Positions 1-16,655 of a stretch of DNA of 16,655 bases are shown in pieces; position 1 is the first letter of the stretch, and each line of letters opens with the position of its first letter. The DNA comes from a virus. Its lineage: Duplodnaviria > Heunggongvirae > Uroviricota > Caudoviricetes. The position numbers and the translations under genes were made by a program. The notes beneath the pieces are model-generated. The model was not told where the DNA came from, made no database searches, and saw nothing but the letters and a program-made list of their open reading frames with translations. Location of the stretch: the IMG/VR virus record IMGVR_UViG_2698536647_000004, positions 1 to 16,655 of that record; one strand, 5' to 3'.

Positions 1-233
1 TCCATGTGCCACGGGCAAAGATCGGAAGGGTTACGCCAGTACCAGCGCAGCCGTTTTTCCATTTCAGGCGCATAACGCTGAACCCAGCGGTAAATCGTGG
101 AGTGATCGACATTCACTCCGCGTTCAGCCAGCATCTCCTGCAGCTCACGGTAACTGATGCCGTATTTGCAGTACCAGCGTACGGCCCACAGAATGATGTC
201 ACGCTGAAAATGCCGGCCTTTGAATGGGTTCAT
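1..233 (-). CDS. tnpA: IS26 transposase, N-terminal 77 codons (truncated by window edge)
   Basis: ATG at 233-231 (minus); the frame runs open to position 1. The translation matches the IS26 transposase N-terminus from memory. Confidence 0.9.
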   Translation of the reverse strand, partial: MNPFKGRHFQRDIILWAVRWYCKYGISYRELQEMLAERGVNVDHSTIYRWVQRYAPEMEKRLRWYWRNPSDLCPWHM

Positions 234-296
234 GTGCAGCTCCATCAGCAAAAGGGGATGATAAGTTTATCACCACCGACTATTTGCAACAGTGCC
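1..296 (-). mobile_element. IS26 (IS6 family), left end only; element continues beyond the window start
   Basis: Minus strand of 283-296 reads GGCACTGTTGCAAA, the 14-bp IS26 terminal inverted repeat, followed by the characteristic leader and the tnpA start MNPFKGRHFQRDIILWAVRWYCKYGISYRELQEMLAERGVNVDHSTIYRWVQRYAPEMEKRLRWYWRNP, recalled from memory as IS26 Tnp26. Confidence 0.9.
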
Positions 297-1240
297 GTTT
301 GCCTTTCCTCATCATCGGTATTGGTCTTAGGAGCACGCAGATCGACTTTGATTTGCTCCAGCATCAGGGGCGGCACTTTCCCGCCATGCGCCTCGATGAA
401 TTCAGCTGCTTCCAGCACTGACCAGTTATTTTCACGCTTTCGTTCGTATGCCAGCTTAACAATGCCAGCTTGCCCCATAGACAAAGCGTGCTTTTCCGCC
501 TCCCGGCTTTCTTTTCGATAGTTATTCCGGATGCTGTAAATGGTGTTGATCAGACTGCTTATCTGCGCGGAACAGCTGTTTAGCATGCTCGCGATACGGT
601 ATTCAGGCGGAGTACCTTCATCATCGTCTTTTTGCTGATCGCGCATTTCCTGCACCAGGCGAATACACGTATCCCTGGCGTTCTCCAGCATAAGGAGATG
701 AGAAAGAGACTTTTCAAGAAGAGTGGTTTCCAGAACATCGGCCCCGGACCGACGCAACATAGCGCGCGCGGCCTTCCGCGCTTCAACGTTATCTATCAGG
801 TAATCGCCAGCTTCGAATTCAAAGCGTTCACCATCATCATCCAGGGTGTCGCGTTCCAGGCGATCACGTAAGGTACGGTGGGCGCGGGTGATCACGTCAT
901 GATCATCAGAACGATCATTTATGCGCTTATTTTGGCGCTTAGCGTTCTCGACTGCGGCTCTGACAACAGCATTAACTCTTTGTTTTTCAGCTATTTCAGC
1001 CACAATATGATCACCTGCACGTTGATCATTAGCGTGATCAATGATCATGCTTTTTAGTGGTTTCCTGACAGGCTTATTTGGCTTGCGGCTGTCCGCTGTC
1101 CTGGTGTCTTCTTTGAAGGCACGGAGATAACGACGTGCGGTATTAGGGTTAAGATTAAACTCGGCGGCATACTGTGCGATGGTGTAACCACCATCCCGCG
1201 CCAGGCGAGCAAAATTCTTCTTGTGATCGTCCCAGGTCAC
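245..1240 (-). CDS. pacA: P1 pacA-like terminase small subunit, 3' end interrupted by IS26; native codons 1240..297 (about 315 aa), last 16 codons of the ORF are read from the IS26 terminus
   Basis: GTG start at 1240 preceded by GGAAG (5-nt spacer) and an in-frame TAA. N-terminal HTH-like segment [24 protein letters not shown] pac-like TGATCA hexamer cluster lies inside the 5' third of the gene, as described for P1 pacA. The ORF tail [16 protein letters not shown] is encoded by the IS26 inverted repeat. Assignment rests on the pac site and context, not on sequence recall. Confidence 0.55.
862..1047. other. pac: pac-like packaging site: two clusters of TGATCA / TGATCG hexamers (each containing a GATC Dam site)
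   Basis: Hexamers on the plus strand: CGATCA 862-867, TGATCA 889-894, TGATCA 900-905, CGATCA 913-918, then TGATCA 1008-1013, 1023-1028, 1035-1040, 1042-1047. This is 4 + 4 hexamers separated by about 90 bp. P1 pac is described as 4 + 3 TGATCA/G hexamers flanking the cleavage region inside pacA. Confidence 0.6.
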
Positions 1241-1325
1241 TTATGCTTCCTTTCGTAAAAACTCTTTTTGACGCGAGGGTAACGAAAGTCACATGTCAAA
1301 AGGCCCGGAACGGGCAAGCAATCAA

Positions 1326-1778
1326 TCAGATACGTGCGGATGTGGCATTACCGTAATAACGGTGCTGACGGGCCACCTTATTGAAAAGTTGACGCGCCAT
1401 TACCCAAGGCTGGTGCTCCCGGCGTTCCTTTTCGTCCTGCGTCATATAGAGTTCGTTCTGGAGTTTTTCATCAAACCGGCGCGGAGCGCGGCTACGGCGA
1501 AAGAATTCAGGATTCAGAGAGTGGATCTGAAATCTACGTGGGCGTGTACTGTCATCAATCAAAACAGACGAATACTTAGACACAGCGATAGCCTTTAAGC
1601 GCAGATAAACATCGCGCTTATCGACATCCAGATGCGGGTATTCCTTTTCAAGAATTGCTGCGAGTTCTTTCGCTGATAGAAGAGATTTAGTGCGGATCAT
1701 GTAATCCGCAATCTCGTACGATGTTATTCGTGAGTGATTTATTTCCATGAAGTGGCGTCCCTGCCAGTTAAGTAACAT
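1326..1778 (-). CDS. Hypothetical 150-aa protein, positionally equivalent to P1 lpa (late promoter activator, gene 10)
   Basis: ORF with ATG at 1778 preceded by AGGTGA. It lies directly upstream of the pacA-like gene and directly downstream of a C1-operator-like motif plus a candidate promoter (TTGCTA, 16 bp, TATTAT on the minus strand, about 1824-1851). I do not recall the Lpa sequence, so the call is by position and size only. Confidence 0.4.
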   Translation of the reverse strand: MLLNWQGRHFMEINHSRITSYEIADYMIRTKSLLSAKELAAILEKEYPHLDVDKRDVYLRLKAIAVSKYSSVLIDDSTRPRRFQIHSLNPEFFRRSRAPRRFDEKLQNELYMTQDEKERREHQPWVMARQLFNKVARQHRYYGNATSARI

Positions 1779-1848
1779 CCTGTCACCTACTGATTAGCCC
1801 ATGTCAACTAATCAACGTGGAATATAATACCCTCGATTAAAGAAATAG

Positions 1849-1865
1849 CAACACATTAGAGCAAT
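1849..1865 (-). promoter_or_regulatory. C1-repressor-operator-like 17-mer ATTGCTCTAATGTGTTG (13/17 to the consensus ATTGCTCTAATAAATTT as I recall it)
   Basis: Read on the minus strand directly after the stop of the DUF968-like gene and upstream of the lpa-like ORF. P1 gene 10 is known to be C1-controlled. Confidence 0.5.
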
Positions 1866-1866
1866 T

Positions 1867-2898
1867 TTATCTAACGCTCGACGAATGACTTGTGATAACG
1901 CCGACTCCAAGCGCGTAATCAAAGAACAATCGTTGATGCATCGCCAGCCTGCCGTGTGTTTTCTCCCAATTATCGCGGTCACGCTCAATATCACGCTGGC
2001 ATGACTGGCACAGAGGAATAGCATAAATGTCATGCGCGCATAATCGACTATGACGAACTATATAAGGCGTAATGTGAGCGCCAGCTCCCGCCGCTCCACA
2101 CCCACAGCATGGACGGGAAGCAACAAAGTCCATGTACTCAGGTAATTTTAGCGATTGCAGTTTTGGTATTTTGAAATGCTCGGAGTCAACATCCACAGGG
2201 CATACTTTTGCACGCATCGGCGCAGCGCGTTCTTCCATCATCTGAACATATGCTGTAGCGCGATCGTCATACGGGCGAATATCCGCCTCTTTCAGAGGTC
2301 CGCTATCCTGCGTTGCGGCTTTCATCTTATTTATTGATATACGGCAAACTTCTTCCGGCATCAGGTGCATCATGTTGCGCATGAAAGCCCACCAGCACAG
2401 TTCCTGAATACTTAAATCATGGCTATCTGAAAGGCCCATTTCCTGACGGGCGACATCCAGTATCCAGTTAACGCGATTATTATGCAGCGTTTCTTTCAGC
2501 TCATTAAAACCACGCATCCGGTAATGGTTATCGTGATGCCAGCACAGCAACACCGCGCTATTGTCTCGTTCTGCGTGGACAATATGGTTGTCACACCAGC
2601 TACGATCTGCGGCCTGGCATTGCCCCTCTTTCCTGCGCAACCACGCCACCAGCGCGTCAATTCCACCAATACGGCGAAACAGTTCATCGCTGTTAAAAAA
2701 CGGCTGCAACGCCTCATTTGTTGCCATAGTTTGCTCGGAAACAACGAGGCCGTCGTCCATGTGCTCGATTAACTCACGCGGCACCGGCTCCATAATAAAT
2801 TTACGGCCAGCCTCCACCAGCTTTCTGACTTCCTGATCCACTTTGAATGTGGCGACGCCAAGCTCTTTTTGTACAAAGGGAGTAATTACGGCTTTCAC
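1867..2898 (-). CDS. DUF968-like prophage protein (343 aa) with a C-terminal Cys/His cluster; positionally like P1 pdcA
   Basis: GTG start at 2898 preceded by AAGGTG. The C-terminus carries CCGCG...AHITPY...[15 protein letters not shown], a putative zinc-binding or HNH-like motif. Resemblance to the DUF968 family (e.g. E. coli YdfU) is by recall. Confidence 0.55.
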
Positions 2899-2925
2899 AT
2901 CACACCTTTCATCACTGATTGGGCT

Positions 2926-3105
2926 TTATCTGCTGCCCGGCATTCTCTGTTTAAGCACAACCATTTCCTGACGGCATAACACAGCAATAGCGGTCCTGGC
3001 ACCAATTTGCTTACCAACCAGGTATTGCTTTACCTTGCGGCGACTCACGCCATCAAGAAGCATCTTTAACGCTTCACGGGACAATTTGTTGTATTTGCGT
3101 GCCAT
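2926..3105 (-). CDS. Small basic protein (59 aa) apparently translationally coupled to doc; positionally like P1 pdcB
   Basis: ATG at 3105 lies 4 nt after the doc stop with GGAG 7 nt upstream. Translation MARKYNKLSREALKMLLDGVSRRKVKQYLVGKQIGARTAIAVLCRQEMVVLKQRMPGSR. The longer ORF to 3126 would overlap doc. Confidence 0.45.
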   Translation of the reverse strand: MARKYNKLSREALKMLLDGVSRRKVKQYLVGKQIGARTAIAVLCRQEMVVLKQRMPGSR

Positions 3106-3109
3106 TAAT

Positions 3110-3490
3110 CTACTCCGCAGAACCATACAATCTACGTAACGTGTCGGCGACAGAAGATACAGATATCTCTCCGGTCGCAGCCCCTACGGTAAGGTCTGCC
3201 AGTTCAGGTGAATCAAATACCTGCACCCCGTTACGGCGTAGAAATAACAGCGCACTGTTTAGCGCGGTACGCTTATTGGCATCATTGAATATATGCCCTC
3301 TCGCTGTAGCCACCAGGTAGGTGGCGGAGACTTCGAAAAGGTCGGTGATCTCTTCGTAGGCAACTCTGGCCTGAACTCTCCCGATAATGGCCTCTGCCCT
3401 ACCCGGATCTGACATTCCCGGCAGGCCGCCGTAGCGGTTTATATTCGCATCATGAAGCGCAATAAGTTCTTCCGGTGATATATGCCTCAT
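3110..3490 (-). CDS. doc: Doc toxin (Fic/Doc family kinase) of the phd-doc addiction module
   Basis: 126 aa starting [16 protein letters not shown], with the Fic/Doc motif HIFNDANKR. Closely resembles P1 Doc from memory. Its start overlaps the phd stop (TAATG). Confidence 0.95.
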
Positions 3491-3711
3491 TATCGGTTAA
3501 CCAGTTCCTTGTTGGTGGAGTCCAGGGTGTCAAACAGGGATGCAAATTCAGCATCCAGCGCCGCTTTTTTGTAGGCTTCGAAAGTAGCCTTGCTGACAAT
3601 TACTGCTGGCTCACGGCCTCTGCGGGTGATTTCAACCTCTTCCCCGGCCTCAACATTGTTGAGCACTTCAGAAAGGTTGCCGCGCGCGGTACGGAAGTTA
3701 ATGGATTGCAT
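3490..3711 (-). CDS. phd: Phd antitoxin (prevent-host-death)
   Basis: 73 aa, [49 protein letters not shown]..., matching P1 Phd from memory. RBS GAGGT upstream of the ATG at 3711. Confidence 0.95.
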
Positions 3712-3760
3712 AAATACCTCGTGTACTCGTTATGTGTACACAATTATAAACTTCACAGGC
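3712..3760 (-). promoter_or_regulatory. phd-doc promoter with palindromic operator half-sites
   Basis: On the minus strand a perfect TATAAT (plus 3743-3748) is followed by the palindrome TGTGTACACA (3733-3742) and GAGTACAC (3721-3729). The P1 phd-doc operon is autoregulated through palindromic operator sites overlapping its promoter. Confidence 0.6.
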
Positions 3761-3887
3761 ATAAAGCACCAGCACTTTGCGGCTTAACAAACCTCTAGGC
3801 AGGTCATTCGTAGCCTAATGTCCGAACTGCTAAAGCATCCAAGTTGCTGTAGAATCACCGCCAATTACATAAGCCTGAAATAAGTGG

Positions 3888-5450
3888 ATGAAAATGACAA
3901 GTATTCAACAACGTGCAGAGCTTCATCGTCAAATCTGGCAAATTGCTAACGATGTCAGGGGTTCGGTCGATGGATGGGATTTTAAGCAATACGTTCTGGG
4001 CGCACTTTTCTACCGTTTTATCAGCGAAAATTTTTCCAGCTATATTGAAGCCGGTGATGACAGTATCTGTTATGCGAAACTGGATGACAGCGTAATTACT
4101 GATGACATTAAAGACGATGCCATCAAAACTAAAGGCTACTTCATCTACCCCAGTCAGCTTTTCTGCAACGTAGCGGCGAAAGCAAATACCAATGACAGAC
4201 TGAATGCAGATTTAAACAGCATCTTCGTTGCTATCGAAAGTTCTGCTTACGGTTATCCTTCAGAAGCTGACATCAAAGGTTTGTTTGCTGATTTCGATAC
4301 CACCAGTAACCGCCTGGGTAACACCGTTAAGGATAAAAATGCCCGCCTGGCTGCGGTTCTGAAAGGGGTTGAAGGGTTAAAACTTGGTGACTTCAACGAA
4401 CATCAGATTGACCTGTTCGGTGATGCCTATGAGTTCCTGATCTCTAACTATGCGGCAAATGCCGGTAAGTCAGGCGGCGAGTTCTTTACACCGCAGCACG
4501 TCTCTAAGCTGATTGCACAACTGGCTATGCACGGGCAGACCAACGTTAACAAAATCTACGACCCGGCAGCGGGTTCCGGCTCACTGTTGTTGCAGGCGAA
4601 AAAACAGTTTGATAACCACATCATCGAAGAAGGCTTTTTCGGTCAGGAAATCAACCATACGACCTATAACCTGGCGCGTATGAACATGTTTTTGCACAAT
4701 ATCAACTACGACAAGTTTGATATCAAGCTGGGTAATACACTGACTGAGCCGCACTTCAGAGATGAAAAACCGTTTGATGCCATCGTTTCTAACCCGCCGT
4801 ATTCGGTGAAATGGATTGGCAGCGATGACCCGACGCTGATTAACGATGAACGTTTTGCCCCGGCTGGCGTTCTGGCCCCCAAATCCAAAGCTGACTTTGC
4901 GTTTGTATTACATGCGCTGAACTATCTTTCGGCCAAAGGTCGCGCTGCGATTGTCTGCTTCCCGGGCATTTTTTACCGTGGCGGCGCGGAGCAGAAAATC
5001 CGTCAGTATCTGGTCGATAATAACTATGTCGAAACCGTAATTTCACTGGCTCCGAACCTGTTCTTTGGCACCACCATTGCCGTAAACATTCTGGTTCTGT
5101 CTAAACATAAAACGGATACCAACGTTCAGTTTATTGACGCCAGCGAACTGTTCAAAAAAGAGACTAACAACAATATCCTGACCGATGCCCATATCGAACA
5201 GATTATGCAGGTATTTGCCAGCAAGGAAGATGTTGCTCATCTGGCGAAATCTGTTGCGTTTGAGACTGTTGTCGCGAATGACTATAACCTGTCGGTGAGC
5301 AGCTATGTGGAAGCGAAAGATACTCGCGAAATTATCGATATCGCTGAGCTGAATGCTGAGCTGAAAACCACGGTCAGCAAAATCGACCAGTTGCGCAAAG
5401 ATATTGATGCGATTGTGGCTGAAATTGAAGGCTGCGAGGTGCAGAAATGA
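3888..5450 (+). CDS. hsdM: Type I restriction-modification N6-adenine DNA methyltransferase subunit HsdM (type IC, EcoR124-like)
   Basis: 520 aa with the AdoMet motif [10 protein letters not shown] and the catalytic NPPY motif (SNPPYS). It overlaps hsdS by 4 nt (ATGA). Confidence 0.97.
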
Positions 5451-6652
5451 GCGAGATGAGTTATCTGGAAAAATTGCTGGATGGGGTTGAGGTTGAGTGG
5501 AAGACACTTGGGCAAACTTGCAAAATTGAAACAGGAAAGCTTAATGCGAATGCGGCTGTTGATGATGGAGAGTATATGTTCTTCACGACAGCCAAAGAGA
5601 CAAGCAAAATTGATAAATTCCGCTGGGATACAGAGGCATTGCTGATTGCAGGCAATGCGAATGTTGGTGAGGTGAAGCATTACATCGGCAAGTTTGAGGC
5701 TTATCAGCGCACCTATGTTCTGACAAATTTCGACGAAAATGTAAGTGTTAGATTTTTGTATTTTGTGCTTAGCCATAGCCTGAAGAAATATCTCGAGGAA
5801 AGAACAAATAGCGCGGCAATGACATATATCGTGCTATCAACCTTAGAGAATTTCCCTATCCCCATCCCCTGCCCGGATAATCCGGAAAAATCCCTTGCCA
5901 TCCAGTCTGAAATCGTTCGGATTCTGGATAAATTTACTGCACTTACCGCTGAGCTTACCGCTGAGCTTAACATGCGTAAAAAACAGTACAACTACTATCG
6001 CGACCAGTTGTTGAGTTTTAAAGATGGTGAGGTTGAGTGGAAGACTTTGGGGGAAATTGGAGATTTTACATATGGATATGCAGCCAAAGCCATGGATTCA
6101 GGAGATGCCCGTTTCGTGAGAATTACTGACATAAATAAAGACGGGAAGCTATCGAAAGAAAACCCAATGTACGTTGAATTAAATGAGGAAAATGAGAAAT
6201 ATACCTTAGACAAAAATGATTTACTCATGGCAAGAACTGGGGCAACCTTTGGTAAAACAATGATTTTTGAAGAAGATTATCCAGCAGTATACGCTGGTTT
6301 TTTAATAAAGTTGAACCTAAATAAAACGATTATTAATGCCAAATATTACTGGCACTTTGCACAAAGTGATTTTTTTTGGGAACAGGCTAATAAATTAGTA
6401 TCTGGTGGTGGGCAACCACAGTTTAATGCTAATGCACTGAAACAAGTCAGAGTACCTATTCCATACCCATCTCACCCTCAAAAATCTTTAGACGAACAGG
6501 GGCGTATTGTGGATATTCTGGATAAGTTTGATGCAATCGCAGCTTCCATCACCGAAGGTCTTCCGCGTGAAATCGAGTTGCGCCAGAAACAATACGAATA
6601 CTACCGTGATTTACTGTTCAGTTTCCCGAAACCTGAAACTGCCAGTAATTAA
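5447..6652 (+). CDS. hsdS: Type I restriction-modification specificity subunit HsdS with two target-recognition domains
   Basis: 401 aa. Conserved central repeat region ([26 protein letters not shown]) and the matching C-terminal conserved region ([18 protein letters not shown]). The N-terminal motif VEVEWKTLG is repeated at the start of TRD2 (GEVEWKTLG). Confidence 0.95.
5944..5967 (+). repeat. Perfect 2 x 12-bp tandem repeat (TACCGCTGAGCT) encoding TAEL-TAEL in the HsdS central spacer region
   Basis: Direct read: 5944-5955 equals 5956-5967, preceded by a degenerate copy encoding TAL. In type IC systems the copy number of this repeat sets the spacer length of the recognition site (two copies in EcoR124I, three in EcoR124II, as I recall). 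Confidence 0.85.
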
Positions 6653-6679
6653 TTGATCATTGCTACCGATCGGACCACC

Positions 6680-6745
6680 TTAACACCCGGTCAGTATATA
6701 GACTATTTTTTACGCGCCGGAAGTCACCATTACCCCCCTTCCGGC
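6680..6745 (+). promoter_or_regulatory. Candidate hsdR promoter (TTAACA 6680-6685, TATATA 6695-6700 region) and a leader stem-loop (GCCGGAAG 6716-6723 / CTTCCGGC 6738-6745)
   Basis: Type IC hsdR is known to have its own promoter separate from hsdMS. The hexamers are weak; the 8-bp inverted repeat with a 14-nt loop is read directly from the sequence. Confidence 0.35.
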
Positions 6746-6773
6746 CCTTGCCAGACGGCACAAAGGATGCGCT

Positions 6774-9700
6774 ATGACTCATCAGACACACACCATTGCT
6801 GAATCCAATAACTTTATCGTTCTTGATAAGTACATCAAAGCTGAGCCAACAGGCGACAGCTACCAGAGCGAATCGGACCTGGAACGTGAACTGATTCAGG
6901 ACCTGCAAAATCAGGGTTATGAATTTATTTCCGTAAAATCACAGTCGGCAATGCTGTCCAATGTTCGGGAACAGCTTCAGAGCCTCAATGGTGTGATGTT
7001 TAATGACAGCGAGTGGCGGCGCTTCACGGAGCAGTATCTGGACAACCCCAGCGATGGTATTCTGGATAAAACCCGTAAAATCCATATCGACTATATCTGC
7101 GACTTTATTTTTGATGACGGGCGACTTGAGAACATCTATTTGATAGATAAAAAGAATCTCATGCGCAATAAGGTGCAGATTATCCAGCAGTTTGAACAGA
7201 CGGGTTCTCATGCTAACCGTTATGACGTCACGATCCTGGTTAATGGTTTACCGCTGGTGCAAATCGAACTAAAAAAACGCGGGGTGGCGATTCGTGAGGC
7301 TTTCAACCAGATACATCGTTACAGTAAAGAGAGTTTTAACAGCGAAAATTCCCTGTTTAAGTATCTGCAACTGTTTGTCATTTCTAACGGCACCGATACC
7401 CGTTATTTTGCCAACACGACAAAGCGCGATAAAAACAGTTTTGACTTCACCATGAATTGGGCGAAATCAGACAACACGCTGATTAAAGACCTCAAAGACT
7501 TTACCGCTACCTTTTTCCAGAAACATACTCTGCTGAATGTTCTGGTGAACTACAGCGTTTTTGACAGTAGTCAGACGCTACTGGTGATGCGACCGTACCA
7601 GATTGCCGCCACCGAGCGCATTCTGTGGAAAATTAAGAGTTCCTTTACAGCGAAGAACTGGTCAAAACCGGAAAGCGGTGGGTATATCTGGCACACTACC
7701 GGTTCTGGTAAAACCCTCACCAGCTTTAAAGCCGCGCGTCTGGCAACAGAGCTGGACTTTATTGATAAAGTCTTCTTTGTGGTCGACAGGAAAGACCTCG
7801 ATTACCAGACCATGAAGGAATATCAGCGTTTTTCGCCAGACAGCGTCAACGGCTCGGAAAATACCGCAGGCCTTAAACGAAATCTGGATAAGGACGATAA
7901 CAAAATTATCGTCACTACTATTCAGAAACTCAATAACCTGATGAAAGCAGAAAGCGACCTGCCTGTATATAATCAGCAAGTGGTGTTTATATTTGATGAA
8001 TGCCACCGCAGCCAGTTTGGAGAAGCGCAGAAAAACCTGAAGAAGAAATTCAAACGCTATTATCAGTTTGGTTTTACCGGCACACCTATTTTCCCGGAAA
8101 ACGCCTTAGGCTCAGAAACGACCGCCAGCGTATTTGGTCGTGAATTGCATTCGTATGTAATTACCGATGCGATTCGTGATGAAAAAGTGCTCAAATTCAA
8201 GGTGGACTACAACGATGTGCGGCCACAGTTTAAGTCTTTAGAGACAGAAACTGACGAGAAAAAACTAAGTGCGGCTGAAAATCAGCAGGCGTTTCTTCAT
8301 CCCATGCGTATACAGGAAATTACGCAATATATTCTGAATAACTTCCGCCAGAAGACGCACCGTACTTTCCCTGGCGCAAAAGGTTTTAATGCTATGTTGG
8401 CAGTGAGCAGCGTGGATGCTGCAAAAGCCTATTACGCGGCGTTTAAACGGTTACAAGAGGAAGCCGCTAATAAATCTGCAACTTATAAACCGCTGCGTGT
8501 TGCGACAATCTTCTCCTTTGCCGCTAATGAAGAACAAAATGCCATTGGTGAAATTTCCGATGAAACTTTTGATACCAGCGCAATGGACAGCAGTGCTAAA
8601 GAGTTTCTTGACGCTGCAATTCGTGAGTATAACAGCTATTTTAAAACTAACTTCAGCACCGACGGTAACGGTTTTCAGAACTACTATCGCGATTTAGCCC
8701 AACGGGTTAAAAATCAGGATATCGATCTGTTAATTGTCGTTGGGATGTTTTTAACCGGCTTCGACGCTCCAACATTGAACACGCTATTCGTCGATAAAAA
8801 CTTGCGTTTTCACGGCCTGATGCAGGCATTTTCCCGCACCAACCGCATTTATAACGCCACTAAAACCTTCGGTAACATTGTCACTTTTCGGGATCTGGAA
8901 CGCTCAACCATTGATGCCATAACGCTGTTTGGTGATAAAAATACCAAAAATGTGGTGTTAGAAAAGAGTTATGCAGAGTATATGGAAGGTTTTACTGATG
9001 CTGCCACCGGTGAAGCCAAACGCGGCTTTATGGCAGTAGTTTCAGAACTGGAACAACGGTTCCCTGACCCTGCCAGTATTGAAAGTGAAAAAGAGAAGAA
9101 AGACTTCGTTAAACTGTTTGGCGAATACCTGCGTGCCGAGAACATCCTGCAAAACTATGATGAATTTGCCACGCTAAAAGCCCTGCAACAAATCGATCTT
9201 AGCGATCCTGTTGCGGTAGAAAAATTCAAAGCAGAACATTATGTGGATGATGAAAAGTTCGCTGAATTGCAAACAATTCGTCTCCCTGCTGAACGCAAGA
9301 TTCAGGATTATCGTTCTGCCTATAACGATATTCGCGACTGGCAGCGCCGTGAGAAAGAAGCTGAGAAAAAAGAGAAATCAACCACTGACTGGGATGACGT
9401 GGTTTTTGAGGTCGATTTGCTGAAGTCTCAGGAAATAAACCTGGATTATATCCTTGGACTGATTTTCGAACACAACAGACAAAATAAAGGCAAGGGCGAA
9501 ATGATCGAAGAGGTCAAACGCTTAATTCGTTCAAGCCTGGGGAACCGGGCGAAAGAGGGCCTGATGGTCGATTTTATTCAGCAAACGAACCTGGATGATT
9601 TACCAGACAAAGCCAGTATCATTGAGGCATTCTTTACGTTTGCTCAACGCGAACAGCAACGTGAAGCAGAAGCATTGATAAAAGAAGAAAATCTCAATGA

Positions 9701-9890
9701 AGATGCAGCAAAACGCTATATTCGCACGTCTTTAAAACGCGAATACGCCACCGAAAATGGCACAGAATTAAACGAAACATTACCAAAACTTAGTCCGTTG
9801 AATCCGCAATATAAAACGAAAAAACAGGCAGTTTTCCAGAAAATCGTCTCGTTTATTGAGAAGTTTAAAGGCGTAGGCGGAAAAATATAG
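6774..9890 (+). CDS. hsdR: Type I restriction enzyme R subunit HsdR (type IC; same 1038-aa length I recall for EcoR124I HsdR)
   Basis: PD-(D/E)xK-type nuclease motif in the N-terminal domain ([19 protein letters not shown]), helicase Walker A TGSGKT and a DECH box ([10 protein letters not shown]). RBS AAGGATG before the ATG at 6774. Confidence 0.97.
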
Positions 9891-9903
9891 CCCAATTCGT
9901 GTT

Positions 9904-9937
9904 TTTCTTGCGGGTTCTTAATTAAACCCGCAAGAGC
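9904..9937. other. Stable stem-loop (stem of at least 9 bp, CTTGCGGGT / ACCCGCAAG) just after the hsdR stop; function unknown
   Basis: Direct read. The T-run is on the 5' side of the stem on the plus strand, so it is not a canonical intrinsic terminator in either orientation. Confidence 0.5.
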
Positions 9938-9969
9938 TCGTGGGGTTCCAAATGGCTAATATACTCCCC

Positions 9970-10056
9970 TTACCCATGCGCGACGATGCCGCCAAAAGTG
10001 ATAGAGAACAGCCAGAAATAGATCGCGGCCATAATGATTTTGAATGCCGTGTTCAT
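9970..10056 (-). CDS. Candidate small hydrophobic protein (28 aa, MNTAFKIIMAAIYFWLFSITFGGIVAHG)
   Basis: ATG at 10056 with AGGAG 8 nt upstream. The whole peptide looks like a single transmembrane helix. Not in the supplied ORF track (too short). It lies between a C1-operator-like site and the end of hsdR. Confidence 0.3.
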   Translation of the reverse strand: MNTAFKIIMAAIYFWLFSITFGGIVAHG

Positions 10057-10084
10057 ATTTTCAGCTCCTGTGATTGATTGGATA

Positions 10085-10115
10085 CATGCCGCGCCTTGCG
10101 GCATGTTTTTATTTT
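10085..10115 (+). terminator. Rho-independent terminator, plus orientation
   Basis: GC-rich 8-bp stem CATGCCGC (10085-10092) / GCGGCATG (10098-10105) with loop GCCTT, followed by TTTTTATTTT. It is the first canonical terminator downstream of hsdR. Confidence 0.7.
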
Positions 10116-10138
10116 CACTTTCTCTGTTTTAAAAATCA

Positions 10139-10155
10139 AGATTTATTAGAGCAAT
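10139..10155 (-). promoter_or_regulatory. C1-repressor-operator-like 17-mer ATTGCTCTAATAAATCT (16/17 to the recalled consensus)
   Basis: Read on the minus strand immediately after the stop of the HAD-like gene. The weak promoter-like hexamers TTGATT and GAAAAT follow it. Confidence 0.6.
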
Positions 10156-10661
10156 TATTGTTGATGAAGAAGCGCATTTTCGTACTCTCTGACCATTAAC
10201 GTAAGCACGCCGTGATGCCTGAAAACACGCGCTACTTCAATCTTATCTTCCAGCGCGAACGCAATTTTACTTAGACCAATTTTCTTAAGGAGATCAATCT
10301 TTGCTGGACCATCATTTCTGTCATCGGTGGCAGGACGCATAGATAGCAAAGGCTCAGCCCCATTTGTTACGTGCTTACGCAACCAGGCTCGTGTTTTATC
10401 CCTTGCGATCTCACAGCGCCCGGTTACAAACCAGACCGTGTAAACGTTAAATAACTGGCGCACCATATCAATAACTGGAGTGATGGGAGTATCGGTGTCA
10501 CAGGCGAGATTAAACTCGTTCCAGTCCTTTGTTACTGCACCTTTACCTGGTGGCGGAAGCAAATGCAGTCTGTCTTCAGTTGCCTCTGATATTGTTCCAT
10601 CAATATCGACTATGACGATATACGGACGTTCCTGGTGTGCGTGTTTATTGAAAATACTCAA
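10155..10661 (-). CDS. HAD-superfamily phosphatase-like protein (168 aa)
   Basis: TTG start at 10661 preceded by a strong AGGAGG (4-5 nt spacer) and an in-frame upstream stop. HAD motif I DIDGT (VIVDIDGTIS). Possibly equivalent to a P1 phosphatase gene, but I cannot confirm that from memory. Confidence 0.6.
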   Translation of the reverse strand: MSIFNKHAHQERPYIVIVDIDGTISEATEDRLHLLPPPGKGAVTKDWNEFNLACDTDTPITPVIDMVRQLFNVYTVWFVTGRCEIARDKTRAWLRKHVTNGAEPLLSMRPATDDRNDGPAKIDLLKKIGLSKIAFALEDKIEVARVFRHHGVLTLMVREYENALLHQQ

Positions 10662-10732
10662 ATGCCCTCCTCATTGGACGAAAAAATGCTGGTGGGCGCA
10701 CTCCACCAACATTAAAAGTGACACTGTAACTA

Positions 10733-11995
10733 TCAGCGAACGTAAATAGTGCCGCCGTTCTCTTTTTCCCATGCATCGCTACGTGCATAGCAAACATCGA
10801 GAAGTCTTCTTGCCGCTGTTTCCTCTAAACCCAATTCGACAACCAACTGTTCATGACGGCGGGTAACCACATCAAACAACGTATGCAGCCCTTTAGTTGC
10901 CAGTTCATCAATGAATTCCGGTTCGAACGGTAGCTCTGCATCTGCCAACATAACCTCTTGCGCCCACTCGACACGGCGGACCAGTTCCGGGCGGCGGCTT
11001 TCCATCTCTTTACAGATCAATTCATGGAAGAACTCTACCCAACCTTCCGGCTGGAACTCGCGGAAAATGGCCAACGGCTGGAAGTTTGGCATCAACCATT
11101 CGTTGATACGGATATCAATGGCATAGCCCATGTCGCAGCAGAACTGATAAGCAAAGTCCAGCTTAGAAACGATATAAGGACGCTCGTTATTGAACTCTTT
11201 AGGCGATGAGATCCCATAAGCCAGGAGGCGCGGGAAGAATGAGATTTGCCCTAACGTCGGATGAAGTTTGCTTGCAGGGAAACGGCGCTCAGTAATGCCA
11301 TACATTTCCTTCTTGAGCGTCGCAAATTTGGCATTCTCATTAACCAGCGCGGTAACCTCTGCTTTTTTATTAGCAAATGCCACGCGCGCTTCGCTTGCAT
11401 CTTTAATAGTTTTTTTGAGCTGTTGGTTAAGGTCGGCGACCTGTTTACGCAGTTCCTGCCGCTCGCTTTTAGCTTTGTTATAGCGTTTCTCAAGGTTAAA
11501 AGGATCAAGTTTCATGATCTCTTTATATTGAGATTTTAGCGTTGAAATCTGTGAGTTCCGCAGTTCAACCATCGCGGTCATTTCATTGAGTTTTGTTTCC
11601 AGCTCAATGCTTATACGTTCGGCATTATCAGCACGCTGGTTGGCGTCATGCGTCGCATCGTCGATCGCATCCTGTTGCTGGCGTTTCAAATGTTCAATTT
11701 GCAGCTGAAGCTCTTCAATTTCTTTACCCTTCAGACCGAGATCCAACTGCATATTTTCAGCTGCATCTACCAGGGAGTTATGGCTATCAGCTTCTGCGTT
11801 ATAAACATCAATAAGCTGTGCGTGAAGCATCTCCGCTGACTGAACCGCATTATCAAAAAAACGTGCTGTGAGGTCATCACAACTAACGCGGCGTTGCGCG
11901 GCCCGGATGTTCTGGATAATGGCCGGGATACCGGCATTCAGGACATCAGGGATAGATACATTTTCGATTGATTGGTTTTGTGCTGAAGTGCTCAT
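10733..11995 (-). CDS. Hypothetical 420-aa protein: long N-terminal coiled-coil region plus a C-terminal domain of unknown function
   Basis: ATG at 11995. Residues about 90-230 are heptad-rich (EIEELQLQIEHLKRQQQ...ELRKQVADLNQQLKK). I do not recognise any catalytic motif in the C-terminal 190 aa. Confidence 0.7.
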   Translation of the reverse strand: MSTSAQNQSIENVSIPDVLNAGIPAIIQNIRAAQRRVSCDDLTARFFDNAVQSAEMLHAQLIDVYNAEADSHNSLVDAAENMQLDLGLKGKEIEELQLQIEHLKRQQQDAIDDATHDANQRADNAERISIELETKLNEMTAMVELRNSQISTLKSQYKEIMKLDPFNLEKRYNKAKSERQELRKQVADLNQQLKKTIKDASEARVAFANKKAEVTALVNENAKFATLKKEMYGITERRFPASKLHPTLGQISFFPRLLAYGISSPKEFNNERPYIVSKLDFAYQFCCDMGYAIDIRINEWLMPNFQPLAIFREFQPEGWVEFFHELICKEMESRRPELVRRVEWAQEVMLADAELPFEPEFIDELATKGLHTLFDVVTRRHEQLVVELGLEETAARRLLDVCYARSDAWEKENGGTIYVR

Positions 11996-11996
11996 T

Positions 11997-12215
11997 TCAA
12001 AGTTCCGTATTAGCTTGTGCTTCGGTCATTTTTCCTAAGTATGAAGGAGGAAGGACTACGCAATTTGTATCCAGTCCCTCACCTATGGCAGCCTGTAAAA
12101 TTCTGGCTAAGGTGAGTCTCTTGTTGCGATACCTGGTGATGACATGCCTGATACCGCCGGTCGGCGTAACAAAGGCGATCAGCCAGTAGTGATATTTCCG
12201 TCGGAATGGCCACAT
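11997..12215 (-). CDS. Hypothetical small protein (72 aa if started at the ATG at 12215), stop 1 nt before the ATG of the 420-aa gene
   Basis: The ORF track gives 11997..12272, but that 5' extension overlaps the minus-strand terminator. The ATG at 12215 has AGGGTG upstream. The tight spacing to the next gene suggests coupling. Confidence 0.4.
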   Translation of the reverse strand: MWPFRRKYHYWLIAFVTPTGGIRHVITRYRNKRLTLARILQAAIGEGLDTNCVVLPPSYLGKMTEAQANTEL

Positions 12216-12229
12216 AGTGCACCCTGTAG

Positions 12230-12246
12230 ATTGCTCTAATAAAAAA
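12230..12246 (+). promoter_or_regulatory. C1-repressor-operator-like 17-mer ATTGCTCTAATAAAAAA (14/17), plus orientation
   Basis: Direct read. It forms an inverted pair with the site at 12279-12295. Confidence 0.5.
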
Positions 12247-12267
12247 CGTGATGAGTGTACATCACGT
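12237..12267 (-). terminator. Rho-independent terminator, minus orientation, ending the glycosyltransferase-like operon
   Basis: Stem ACGTGATG (12246-12253) / CATCACGT (12260-12267) with a 6-nt loop. On the minus strand the stem is followed by TTTTTTATT. Confidence 0.7.
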
Positions 12268-12278
12268 TTCAAAAATAT

Positions 12279-12295
12279 GGAATTATTAGAGCAAT
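12279..12295 (-). promoter_or_regulatory. C1-repressor-operator-like 17-mer ATTGCTCTAATAATTCC (14/17), minus orientation
   Basis: Read on the minus strand directly after the stop of the glycosyltransferase-like gene. The following 30 nt closely resemble the sequence after the site at 10139-10155. Confidence 0.55.
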
Positions 12296-12296
12296 A

Positions 12297-12998
12297 TTAT
12301 TCTGATTCTCGCTCAAAAAACGAGCTGATAAGGGGAAGCCAATCCTCTGACACTTCGCGAGGTCGCGGTTTGCCGTGGAAAAAGATTATTCGGCAGTCTT
12401 TTGGTAATGCCCCATTCCCCCTGGAGTAACGCGCGCTCGCATATTTCGAACCAGGTTCCACAACATCGGCCTTGTAACTTACAAACCATCCTGGATACAG
12501 ATCCTGAAATGCTGGTGTATCATCGCCCATAACCTTTCGTAAGAACCCCTGGTCACCCCAGCACTCAGTAGTGACACAACGAGAAATCCAACCTTCCGGA
12601 TCTTGCCAGAATGAACTCCAGATATGCGCTTTAACACTATTTGGTATCCACAGGGCACCGCTGCCACGATATTGTGGATGGTAAAAATCCCTAAGCATGG
12701 TGAAGCTGGTTGGTGGATGCTCTAGGATTGGGCGTATATCACCGGCAATAACCGTGTCCAAATCCAGATAGAACAGATCATCGGTTATATCCGGTCGGAA
12801 CAACTCGATTTTCGCCCACCAGCCACGGCACTTTTGCCACTGGTTGATCAATGGGACAACTTTGACGCCAGGTACATGTAAACGCTTCAGGTCTGTCAGG
12901 CAAATAATTTCATAGCCTTTTGGCAGTTGATTAACCAGCCACTGCACATCGGAAGCGTTATAGTCACCACCAGAGCGAAAAACTAAAGCAATCTTCAT
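12297..12998 (-). CDS. Hypothetical protein (233 aa), possibly a glycosyltransferase (DxD-like LDLD motif)
   Basis: ATG at 12998 overlaps the stop of the upstream phosphatase gene (ATGA). The N-terminus [13 protein letters not shown] and [12 protein letters not shown] suggest a nucleotide-sugar transferase fold, but this is weak. Confidence 0.45.
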
Positions 12999-13687
12999 GC
13001 TGCACCATCACCTTTCACTTTCATCAATGTCAGGTTTCCGCAAAATACGGCACCAGTGTCGATATACTGCTGATTCCAGAATGTCTTCGGGCTTTTCACC
13101 GGAGTGTGACCAAAGATAAAACGATCTGCGCCCGAAATTTCGCCACCAATATCATCCATCGAATCACTGATACGCTCGCGCGCCCAGACAACGTTGAAAA
13201 GCGGCACCTCCTTACCGAATTGGTATTCATTATCCGGATAGTCGGCATGGGCTATAACGATAGTTTCTTGCCCGGTGTTCAACTCAATGATATAGGGCAG
13301 ACGCTTTACCAGCTCCACCAGCGCCCAGGCTAATATTTCCTGATCAGTGTCCAGCATGAAGAACCATTGTCCGCCATTCATTAGCCAGTTATTCACGTTG
13401 CCATCTGGACTTAACGCATCAATCATCAGCCGCTCATGGTTCCCCATCACTGCCCTGAACCAGGGCATCTGCAATAGTTCCAGACATTCGACATTTTCAG
13501 TACCGCGATCGATAAGGTCGCCGACCGATATCAGTAAATCCTGCGCCGGGTCAAAATCCACACGATGGAGTTCGGACATCAGTCTGGTGTAGCAACCATG
13601 CAGATCACCAACAACCCAGACATTCCTGTATTTGGTACCGTCGATACGGTGATAAATTGTGGGTGCCATCATGTATTCTTCAGCCAT
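12995..13687 (-). CDS. Ser/Thr protein phosphatase of the lambda PPase (calcineurin-like metallophosphoesterase) family; likely P1 ppp-like
   Basis: Motifs GDLHGC, GDLIDRG, GNHE and a C-terminal GHTP. Strongly resembles the lambda phosphatase (nin region ORF221) from memory. The true start may be the ATG at 13669, which overlaps the upstream stop by 1 nt. Confidence 0.85.
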
Positions 13688-14295
13688 TCTTTAAGAGTCA
13701 TCTGTGGAATGCCTCCCATTTTCCCGCATGAAACAACGTCAATCTGTTCACGCGCAGACTGGAATAACAAAGGCAGGTGACTTAGATTTTTTGGCGTGCC
13801 GCCGGAGTGAACGCGTGGTTCTTGTGTAGCGTCAACGCCCACCAGGGCGACATGTTTGAATCCGATATGGAAAGCCAGGTTCAGAGCGCCATATGCACTA
13901 TTGCCGCTGGCAATTTCATTCTCATCTTCGCAAAGTCCGAAATGTGCGGACCAACGCCACGCCCACCACTCGGGAGAATTCGTATTTTTTGGCTCCATGC
14001 CACGTTCAGCCACACGACGGAAGCACAGAACGCCGTCTCTGACTTCACGTTCTTTAACATCGGGTAGTGCCATGCAATAACAAACACCACGGCGACGGCG
14101 GCCACGACCAACGCGCCGCATATTGTCTGGCGATGGATCAAGTGTGAAAAAATAAGAAGCGCGGTTCAGCCAGTCGATGGCCCCATTGACCGCTATAATC
14201 GGCACTCCGCGCGGCGCAACAAAGTTTGCGGCGCTTGGGCCACTGCCGACGATAATAACGCGATCACTGCCTCTAAATTTATTCTTGGGAAACAT
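13669..14295 (-). CDS. MptE-like / DUF115-like protein, paralog A (208 aa)
   Basis: Motifs VIIVGSGPS ... IIAVNGAID ... [12 protein letters not shown] ... VALVGVDAT resemble the Rossmann-like core of PF01973 (MptE/Maf family), by recall. It is a paralog of the next gene. Confidence 0.45.
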
Positions 14296-14855
14296 TGAAT
14301 TGCACAGCTCCTACTTGCATTCAAAATATGTAAATCTGCGTGTTTTTTGCGGGTATCCAGGAACTGCTGTTGCCATTTTGAAATAGACACCTGCGTTGGA
14401 TTCCGTAGGGCTTGAGGGTGTGCTCCATGCCAATGAAGGCCGTTTTGCAGAGAACAGTCATAGCCGACTAATACAACTACTTCAGCCCCTGATTCAGCCG
14501 CCAGACTGATAGTCTGCGCGCCGCTATTAACCCCTTCAGCCGGTCCACAATATCGCCTGTACTCCAACGAAAATGATTTCGCCGCCGCCAGGTTGGCTGT
14601 CACTTTGCGGAATCTCCCTCCCGGTATGGTGGATCCGTATTGCTTCCACCATGACAAATCACCGGCGTATAAGGCATAAATGTCATCGAACATCTGCCAG
14701 GAATTGTTAACCGCGATGATTGAACAGCCAGTTTTTTCTATAGCAGCACAGTCCTCACGAGTGAGTGACGGACCGCTACCGACACAAAAAACAGTCCTAG
14801 TCGCCCTGGGTGGTATGTTCATTCTCAGCTGCAAATTCAGCCTCCAGGCGAGCAT
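14193..14855 (-). CDS. MptE-like / DUF115-like protein, paralog B (about 208-220 aa)
   Basis: Motifs VFCVGSGPS ... IIAVNNSWQ ... SGAQTISLAA ... VVLVGYDCS. Start uncertain: ATG 14855, TTG 14834 (GGAGG 6 nt upstream) or ATG 14822. The 3' end overlaps paralog A by 103 nt in another frame. Confidence 0.45.
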   Translation of the reverse strand: MLAWRLNLQLRMNIPPRATRTVFCVGSGPSLTREDCAAIEKTGCSIIAVNNSWQMFDDIYALYAGDLSWWKQYGSTIPGGRFRKVTANLAAAKSFSLEYRRYCGPAEGVNSGAQTISLAAESGAEVVVLVGYDCSLQNGLHWHGAHPQALRNPTQVSISKWQQQFLDTRKKHADLHILNASRSCAIQCFPRINLEAVIALLSSAVAQAPQTLLRRAECRL

Positions 14856-14994
14856 TCATTTCAGCGATTACCGGGTCCACTACAGCATCTGCTTCCTGTT
14901 CATTACGCGGCATGATCGATGCCAGCGATTCATAATTAGCCTTGGATGACACAATTATTCTCCCGATGTTAATGTGCGCTATATCAAAGAGCAC
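14797..14994 (-). CDS. Questionable small ORF (65 aa, or 38 aa from an internal ATG)
   Basis: ORF track only. There is no convincing RBS at either candidate start. Confidence 0.25.
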   Translation of the reverse strand: MLFDIAHINIGRIIVSSKANYESLASIMPRNEQEADAVVDPVIAEMNARLEAEFAAENEHTTQGD

Positions 14995-15018
14995 ATATGC
15001 ACTAATTAATTTATTATT

Positions 15019-15381
15019 TTAAGCAGCATACAACCACTTGTCGCCGTTCAATACATGCTCAATAGCCTCACCCTTTTTAAGGCTTATGTATTCCAGGATG
15101 GCGGTTATCGCTTGTTCTGCACCATACGCAAGAACGACGTAGTAACCTTCCTCTCTAAGCCTGCGCATCCAGGCGATCTGCTCTTTCGTCGGGGCTTTAC
15201 CATTTGGTTCTTTAAGCTCAATTCGCATGCCGTGATAAATACCGCATGCTTTATCGAGACTCATGTCCGGATAACCTTTTTTCTGCCCTTCAGCCTTCAT
15301 TTTCCCGGCGGTTGCTTTTGAACGTTTCCCTCTGAAGTGGTTTACTGAATTTGGCCACCTGAACAGAGGTGATATGCTCAC
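15019..15381 (-). pseudogene. VRR-NUC domain nuclease gene, 5' end replaced by the IS911 terminus (native part 15019..15332)
   Basis: Core KGYPDMSL ... IELKEPNGKAPTKEQIAWMRRLREEGYYVVLAYG fits the VRR-NUC pattern (G.PD ... E.K ... Q). The first 16 codons of the ORF are encoded by IS911 inverted-repeat sequence, and the usual N-terminal portion of the domain is missing. Confidence 0.65.
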
Positions 15382-15667
15382 CTCAGAACAACACAGGTGC
15401 CATAATGAAAAAAAGAAATTTCAGCGCAGAGTTTAAACGCGAATCCGCTCAACTGGTCGTTGACCAGAATTACACCGTGGCAGATGCAGCCAGCGCTATG
15501 GATGTCGGCCTTTCCACAATGACGCGATGGGTGAAACAATTACGTGATGAGCGGCAGGGAAAAACACCAAAAGCCTCCCCCATTACCCCGGAACAAATTG
15601 AAATCCGTGAGCTCAGGAAAAAGCTACAACGTATTGAAATGGAAAATGAAATATTAAAAAAGGCTAC
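15333..15667 (+). mobile_element. IS911 (IS3 family) left-end fragment: left inverted repeat plus a truncated orfA (ATG 15405), interrupted by IS30
   Basis: Begins TGAAGTGG...; orf[89 protein letters not shown] matches IS911 OrfA (InsN) from memory. The frameshift heptamer A AAA AAG is at about 15655-15661, and IS30 sequence starts at 15668. Confidence 0.85.
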
Positions 15668-16655
15668 TGTAGATTCAATCTGTCAATGCAACACCCCTTT
15701 CAATTATCTCTTTCGGTGTTTTGAACTTCAGTGTCTTTCTCGGTCTGTTGTTTAGCTGAGCAGCAACCAGATCTAGTTCATGTTGAGTATATTGGGCAAG
15801 ACATGTCTTTTTAGGAAAGTACTGCCGAATTAGCCCATTTGTATTCTCATTTGTTCCCCGCTGCCAAGGACTCTGAGGATCGCAGAAGTAAACTTTAACG
15901 CCGGTGCTGACAGTAAATTCTAGATGTCTGGCCAGTTCCATTCCTCTGTCCCATGTCAGTGATTTTCTGAGTTCTGACGGTAAACTCAGGAATTTGTCGG
16001 TAAGAGCCTGATTTACTGAGACAGAATCTTTGCCCCTGAGTCTAAGGATGATCGTATAACGTGATTTTCGGTCTACAAGTGTGTCTATATGAGAGTTTTT
16101 TGTACCTGAGACTAAATCGCCCTCCCAATGCCCCAGAGAGCGTCTGTTATCGATATTTCGGGAACGTTCGTGAATTGGTGTTCCGTTCACTATGTTAATC
16201 GTACCTCTTTCGCCTTTGCGGGTATGACGCCTGCCATGGCGAAGGCTATGCGACCGTCGCAGATGCTGTATATTCAGGTGGTGTAGCGCTTCACGGCTAC
16301 GAAAGTACAGCGTTTTATAAATTGTCTCAGGTGATATTCGCAGCGTTTTTTGACGTGGTTTTGTTCGCCTTAACCATCCTGATATTTGCTCTGGAGACCA
16401 TTTCATCTCCAGCTTTTCCAGAACAAGCTTTCGCAATGGTAAATTTTGATCCAGTAAGCACGGTTTTGGCCTTTTCGCCATTCTGTTGGCTCGGTTATTA
16501 GCATCAACAGCTTTGTAATAGCGTCTGCCCCGATTACGCTGAACTTCACGTGAGATCGTCGAAGGACTGCGATTCAGCGCAGTAGCTATCGCACGAATGC
16601 TCATTTTGGCTGACAAACCAGCTCGTATCTCCTCGCGCTCAGACAGTGTCAGGTG
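15668..16655 (-). mobile_element. IS30, partial (right end and most of the transposase; continues beyond the window end)
   Basis: The terminus TGTAGATTCAATCTGTCAATGCAACA begins at 15668. The transposase frame is open from 15675 to the window edge (...[30 protein letters not shown]...) and matches IS30 InsI from memory. Confidence 0.9.
15675..16655 (-). CDS. IS30 transposase, C-terminal approx 326 codons (5' end outside window)
   Basis: Stop TGA at 15677-15675 inside the inverted repeat. A DDE-type catalytic region is present. The ORF track begins at an internal TTG, but the frame stays open to 16655. Confidence 0.9.

Follow-up and report, generated by a model that had tools for sequence, protein, structure and literature searches.

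Introduction

An inverted 8-bp repeat is the described signature of intramolecular replicative IS26 transposition, and the outcome of IS26 transposition in cis is a deletion without target duplication (He et al. 2015, mBio, PMC4471558). Among P1-like elements, pJIE250-3 has been reported as a defective P1-derived plasmid with "lost lytic functions", and pTZ20_1P as a P1-like element remodelled by IS26 (Venturini et al. 2019, PMC6906374). pTZ20_1P is still inducible and able to lysogenize, and both RCS47 and pTZ20_1P are known to carry ant between pacB and c1 (PMC6906374). According to the P1 annotation, PacA cuts the pac site together with PacB.

Here, we analysed a stretch of 16,655 bp (the window), which is the entire draft short-read contig CXWW01000034.1 (assembly GCA_001268505.1); an 11,240-nt stretch of the two was compared and was identical. 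At its left end, pacA of a P1-like backbone runs directly into IS26. We propose, with a probability of roughly 0.8, that this junction was formed by an IS26-driven adjacent deletion in an IncY/P1-derived plasmid, which also removed pacB and left the element without a pacase.

Results

The window contig is bounded by collapsed repeats, IS26 on the left and IS30 on the right. Since it terminates in repeats at both ends, neither adjacency is resolvable from the window, and since it stops within IS26, its own left side is unreadable. The following features were identified at the left end.

Positions 1 to 296, minus strand: left 296 nt of IS26 (nt 1-296, IRL end), 0 mismatches to the canonical 820-bp IS26
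Positions 231-233, minus strand: ATG start of tnp26, the first 77 Tnp26 codons occupying 3-233
Positions 283 to 296, minus strand: 14-bp terminal inverted repeat (IRL) of IS26, GGCACTGTTGCAAA, read as its reverse complement and directly adjoining pacA

The copy used as canonical reference is 820 bp long and annotated as encoding WP_001067855.1. The element was assigned to IS26 (IS6 family) by the 14-bp GGCACTGTTGCAAA end together with sequence identity that includes the 5' end of tnp26, and the IRL-specific extension ...ATAGTCG also matched at this end. The window holds 296 nt of the element, while the complete 820-bp IS26 is present in the sister plasmids and in a metagenome contig, L005; in a longer sister contig, the called gene product matched Pfam DDE_Tnp_IS240. 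The window gave no matches in Rfam and tRNA scans.

As read by translation and alignment, the open reading frame next to IS26 consists of a pacA part and an IS26 part.

Positions 245 to 1240, minus strand: PacA'-IS26 read-through ORF, 331 aa, with a GTG start as in P1
Positions 297 to 1240, minus strand: pacA nt 1-944 (314 codons plus 2 nt), one ungapped piece against P1, P7 and RCS47
Positions 245 to 296, minus strand: IS26-encoded fusion tail, comprising the third base of codon 315, 16 codons and TGA

When compared with P1 PacA (397 aa), residues 1-316 of the fusion ORF aligned with 8 substitutions and the sequence diverged thereafter. The DNA junction follows pacA nt 944; the first G of IS26 completes codon 315, and the first IS26 codon restores Ala316 by chance. 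As P1 pacA is 1,194 nt long, 250 nt are missing from the window gene, corresponding to residues 317-397 (the C-terminal 81-82 residues). The breakpoint (P1 91472) falls before the predicted PpacB promoter (P1 91583-91611), which is hence in the missing part. The N-terminal helix-turn-helix of PacA (residues about 10-44) was kept, with Pfam matches under the curated cut-off; HTH_23 scored 22.2 bits on the truncated PacA, against a cut-off of 24.6 bits. Judged by its sequence, with the 8 substitutions in residues 1-316, the lpa-pacA synteny and a pac site inside the gene, this is a genuine pacA orthologue. A full-length 397-aa PacA followed by pacB was not found, as the ORF departs after residue 316 and the contig has no pacB. 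The window pacA is therefore a pseudogene, made up of PacA 1-314 and an IS26-encoded tail, and both junction and truncation are read directly from the DNA.

These results agree with much of a preliminary description of the window, which had placed an IS26 repeat beginning at 296 inside the pacA frame, 16 IS26 codons before the stop, and the C-terminal part of PacA as missing or displaced: positions 283-296 are the IRL directly after pacA nt 944, the 52 nt at 245-296 are 1 nt, 16 codons and a stop, and the residues after 316 are not encoded.

The window is a draft contig with repeats at both ends (IS26 and IS30), as would be the case if the IS26/pacA junction were a chimeric short-read join at a repeat. 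An exact-protein look-up returned 8 contigs of NCBI and ENA assemblies, derived from several samples, that all encode the identical 331-aa fusion protein, and all draft contigs with the fusion ORF whose DNA was returned end within IS26. The exact junction was also present in the independent metagenome contig L005 (OGZO01012692.1), which differs by 1 SNP nearby. Moreover, at repeat edges assemblers break contigs rather than make precise IS-end junctions. With the fusion ORF recurring in different samples, a chimeric assembly can be dismissed for practical purposes. A search for the exact window junction found no match in PLSDB plasmids, 5,426 complete E. coli genomes, GTDB representatives or IMG/VR.

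We also observed that the packaging signals on the right side of the junction are retained. Window 297-1800 aligned to P1, P7 and RCS47 as a single ungapped stretch with 98.1-98.5% identity, and it contains the following elements.

Positions 889 to 1047, minus strand: pac site within pacA, with 4 + 3 TGATCA/G hexamers, 94% identity to P1 90700-90900 and 7/7 hexamers conserved
Positions 953-969, minus strand: pac cleavage region, 2 mismatches to P1
Positions 973-985, minus strand: IHF site in pac, 0 mismatches to P1
Positions 1276 to 1294, minus strand: late promoter LPpac, identical to P1 90475-90493
Positions 1326 to 1778, minus strand: intact lpa, encoding the late promoter activator of 150 aa (annotation of relatives; Pfam BPP1_LPA)
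Positions 1824-1865, minus strand: Plpa (0 mismatches to P1) and the C1 operator Olpa (1 mismatch to P1), upstream of lpa

Downstream in the window are pdcB, pdcA, doc, phd, a type I restriction-modification operon and a PNK-type phosphatase gene, together with genes that align to the P1 pmgP-pmgS block. pdcB (DUF968; window 1867-2898) is called at 343 aa in the window contig versus 347 aa in three further contigs bearing the identical fusion ORF (L013, L015 and L016), a small difference in length or start between lineages. Against characterised genes, every component showed at least 96% identity. The larger blocks on this side are as follows.

Positions 3888-9890: type I restriction-modification operon adjoining phd, with hsdM (520 aa), hsdS (401 aa) and hsdR (1038 aa)
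Positions 15333-16655: nested insertion sequences; P1 homology stops at 15332, where an IS3-family element starts

In P1 and RCS47, humD, hot and their neighbours occupy the position held by hsdM/S/R in the window. At least 156 PLSDB plasmids cover at least 80% of the window, indicating that the variant backbone with the hsd operon is common. The IS3-family element at the right end, which we take to be IS911/ISSen4-like, is interrupted at about 15678 by an IS30 (terminal repeat TGTAGATTCAAT...) that runs off the window. The same IS3-family/IS30 nest was seen in pCE1537-E and pECTOK-001_2.

Four relatives could be read across IS26, namely the complete plasmids pCE1537-E, pECTOK-001_2 and CX04, and the metagenome contig L005. 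pCE1537-E and pECTOK-001_2 showed 100% identity to window 297-16655, the IS nest at the right end included, while CX04-type plasmids were identical over window 1-1800 save for a pacA remnant that is 18 bp shorter. As the window shares its right-hand IS junction with pCE1537-E and pECTOK-001_2, the source plasmid is very probably a member of the decayed IncY/P1-derived lineage of pCE1537-E, pECTOK-001_2 and CX04. The breakpoints of the window and its relatives were mapped onto the intact RCS47 (lpa-pacA-pacB-ant-c1), with pacA homology ending at these points.

RCS47 reference position 1716 (about pacA nt 1082): pCE1537-E and pECTOK-001_2
RCS47 reference position 1578 (pacA nt 944): the window and L005
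RCS47 reference position 1560 (pacA nt 926): CX04

On the c1 side, homology resumes at RCS47 reference position 4758, inside ant, in all three complete plasmids. The outer (left) flank of IS26 is CGTGCCAG in each of them and belongs to a Tn3-family tnpA remnant inserted in ant beside c1, the tnpA fragment being cut by the IRR end of IS26. This flank encodes a Tn3-family TnpA C-terminus (Pfam DDE_Tnp_Tn3, E=2.5e-64), and the Tn3-family terminal repeat at its end, GGGGTTTGAGGGCCAATGGAACGAAAACGTACGGTAAG, which is presumably Tn1000-like, adjoins an ANT-domain fragment (Pfam ANT). In pCE1537-E (sequence L002), this fragment of an ANT-domain antirepressor lies at 10593-10896 beside c1, with 91% aa identity to the C-terminus of P1 Ant1; it represents an RCS47-type ant, stands at the place of the pacB end in P1, and is truncated by the repeat GGGGTTTGAGGGCCAATGGAACGAAAACGTACGGTAAG.

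In the relatives, c1 and IS26 are separated by a stretch of about 900 bp. A 3' end of pacB had been considered for it and was rejected by tblastn and Pfam: the stretch consists of the ANT-domain antirepressor fragment and the Tn3-family tnpA remnant. The IS26 of pCE1537-E had likewise been considered as a divergent variant, which was rejected, as it is 1 nt from canonical IS26.

The three complete relatives thus combine a fixed flank, CGTGCCAG, with variable endpoints, 1716 and 1560, and no duplication. The window adds the intermediate endpoint 1578, with its left flank lying outside the contig. CX04 and pCE1537-E are 1 nt apart in IS26 and 2 nt apart in the 2.5 kb to its left. The left IS26 of pCE1537-E adjoins, with its IRL end, an internal point of a second IS26, and removing the 636 bp next to this IRL end (12297-12932) yields the exact junction of the window. 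For the complete relatives, the fixed IS26 with its fixed left flank and the differing right endpoints are most readily explained by IS26 adjacent deletions, either independent or successive. Taken together, the nested pacA breakpoints, with one IS26 and one left flank shared by the complete relatives, point to IS26 adjacent deletion.

The preliminary description had spoken of an IS26 insertion. In its simple form, IS26 would have inserted into an intact pacA with an 8-bp duplication, and the rest of pacA together with pacB would lie on another contig. The window is compatible with this, since its contig ends inside IS26, and IS26 insertions with direct repeats have been reported in P1-like backbones (PMC6906374). 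However, no 8-bp direct target duplication was found at the IS26 copies of CX04, pCE1537-E, pECTOK-001_2 or L005, and pacA did not resume beyond IS26 in any of these four sequences. L005, the only sequence with the exact window junction that reads through IS26, has no pacA past the element, and its two IS26 flanks differ (AGGCAAAC vs ATGCTCAG). The reciprocal junction of a simple insertion (IS26 IRR, AGGCAAAC and pacA from nt 945) had no exact match in the GTDB species representatives and reached at least 80% coverage nowhere in 5,426 complete E. coli genomes. Furthermore, pacB was absent from all three complete sister plasmids. We therefore consider a simple insertion very unlikely. Truncation of pacA by IS26, as first described, holds, whereas its simple-insertion form does not fit the missing duplication, the lack of resumed pacA and the nested breakpoints. 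The scenario that had been named against a deletion, namely pacA resuming beyond a single IS26 flanked by an 8-bp direct repeat and with pacB present, was not what the relatives carry (no direct repeat, no resumed pacA, no pacB). The missing reciprocal junction makes it less likely, although it retains some probability for the part of the source genome outside the contig.

The 3' end of pacA and pacB might instead have been moved elsewhere in the cell, by an inversion in trans, a cointegrate or recombination between IS26 copies. An IS26-mediated inversion did occur at the same locus in pECTOK-001_2, whose layout is CGTGCCAG-IRR[IS26]IRL-inverted internal tnpA piece-CTGGCACG-IRL[IS26]IRR-pacA. 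Here, two inverted IS26 copies surround an inverted internal fragment of the Tn3-family tnpA, and CGTGCCAG and CTGGCACG (9114-9121 and 11741-11748 of sequence L004) are mutual reverse complements; such inverted 8-mers are the textbook footprint expected of IS26 transposition in trans. The left flank of L005 is also different, indicating that rearrangement through IS26 copies happens in this family. In L005 (992-3768), the other IS26 end leads into a gene of the FUSC family and a transposase gene of the IS110 family instead of the tnpA remnant. Either left flanks vary by recombination between IS26 copies, or this short-read contig is chimeric across the repeat. Against displacement, however, the DNA that was inverted in pECTOK-001_2 comes from tnpA and not from the pac region, and PacB and PacA 362-397 had no tblastn match anywhere in the 138-kb pCE1537-E, so that neither PacB nor PacA C-terminal coding sequence is found in that plasmid. 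Even if moved, pacA would still be split and non-functional. Displacement is thus unlikely, and deletion next to IS26 remains our preferred reading.

Discussion

In the present study, the structures of the relatives, read directly across IS26, supply the side of the junction that the window contig lacks. We infer that the left flank of the source plasmid was the same as in these relatives and that the deletion was mediated by the transposase. IS26 would already have sat on the c1 side, next to the Tn3-family tnpA remnant in an RCS47-type ant. Through intramolecular replicative transposition in cis, its IRL end would then have attacked a target within pacA, and the DNA between IS26 and this target would have been lost, leaving the IRL directly after pacA nt 944. 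Compared with an RCS47-type backbone, about 3.2 kb would be lost in this way, comprising pacA nt 945-1194, the entire pacB and the 5' 868 nt of ant. pCE1537-E would represent the "before" state, and the deletion in CX04 would have gone 18 bp further than that in the window. Transposition in cis and homologous recombination between two IS26 copies in direct repeat would be indistinguishable by their end product.

Without the C-terminus of PacA and without PacB, there would be no pacase, and the element could neither cut its own pac site nor start its own packaging. This agrees with the loss of packaging function suggested in the preliminary description, given that the end of PacA and PpacB are missing from the window and that pacB is gone in every relative readable across IS26. 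The term "non-packageable", in contrast, fits in part: the element's own pacase is missing, but the cis signal was kept (7/7 hexamers and the IHF site). As the pac site, IHF site, LPpac and lpa all survive, the element is not self-packaging yet retains its signal in cis.

We do not see the truncation as the event that locked the region in as a remnant, as had been proposed. pCE1537-E, the only sister checked in full, has only about 22% of the P1 sequence left, most of it in cre-ref, lxc-ulx, the pmgP-pmgS block, phd-pacA' and the c1 region, and no portal, head, tail or lysis genes are annotated in it. Its cargo includes cellulose, sucrose, arsenic and other genes among 13 complete or partial IS26 copies. 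The pacA truncation is one lesion among many in an already degraded P1-derived plasmid, and an IS26-mediated deletion describes the cause better than an insertion that inactivates a phage.

From the retained motifs, one might suppose that the plasmid is a helper-dependent, pac-bearing replicon, or that the truncated PacA interferes with the packaging of incoming P1, although we regard either idea as quite improbable. If the former were true, a co-infecting P1-like phage would cut pac, and headful packaging would result in high-frequency transduction of the plasmid cargo. If the latter were true, the truncated PacA would bind the pac hexamers through its retained N-terminal helix-turn-helix.

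In practical terms, the 331-aa ORF is better labelled as a pacA pseudogene fused to IS26 than as a terminase, and PCR or marker screens for P1-like phage-plasmids that are based on pacA may score such remnants as positive, depending on primer location, despite the lack of annotated virion genes in pCE1537-E, the closest complete relative. The components and the mechanism are all well known already, and the locus represents one more case of IS26 trimming a phage-plasmid backbone to a plain plasmid, with little import beyond annotation. The nested breakpoints in four related sequences nevertheless provide a clean natural series for IS26 deletion in cis and inversion in trans.

Compared with the IS26 adjacent deletions in cis described previously (PMC4471558), the locus is alike in that an IS26 end adjoins a partial gene, that no 8-bp duplication occurs in the readable relatives, and that a sister replicon still carries DNA deleted here. 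The neighbouring event in a sister plasmid likewise has the inverted 8-bp repeat of the trans type. It differs in that the window shows one IS26 end, the event being reconstructed from relatives. With the pacase and pac of P1 (NC_005856) and RCS47 (NC_042128), it shares about 98% nucleotide identity, the lpa-LPpac-pacA order, the GTG start, and the 4+3 hexamers with the IHF site inside pacA; unlike them, the window has no pacB and is without the last 250 nt of pacA, pacB being absent from the complete relatives too. As in pJIE250-3 and pTZ20_1P, a P1-type backbone has gained plasmid modules and lost phage functions through IS elements, and the backbone has ant between pacB and c1, as in RCS47 and pTZ20_1P. 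The decay of pCE1537-E, with about 22% of P1 left, is, however, far more extreme than in these two elements.
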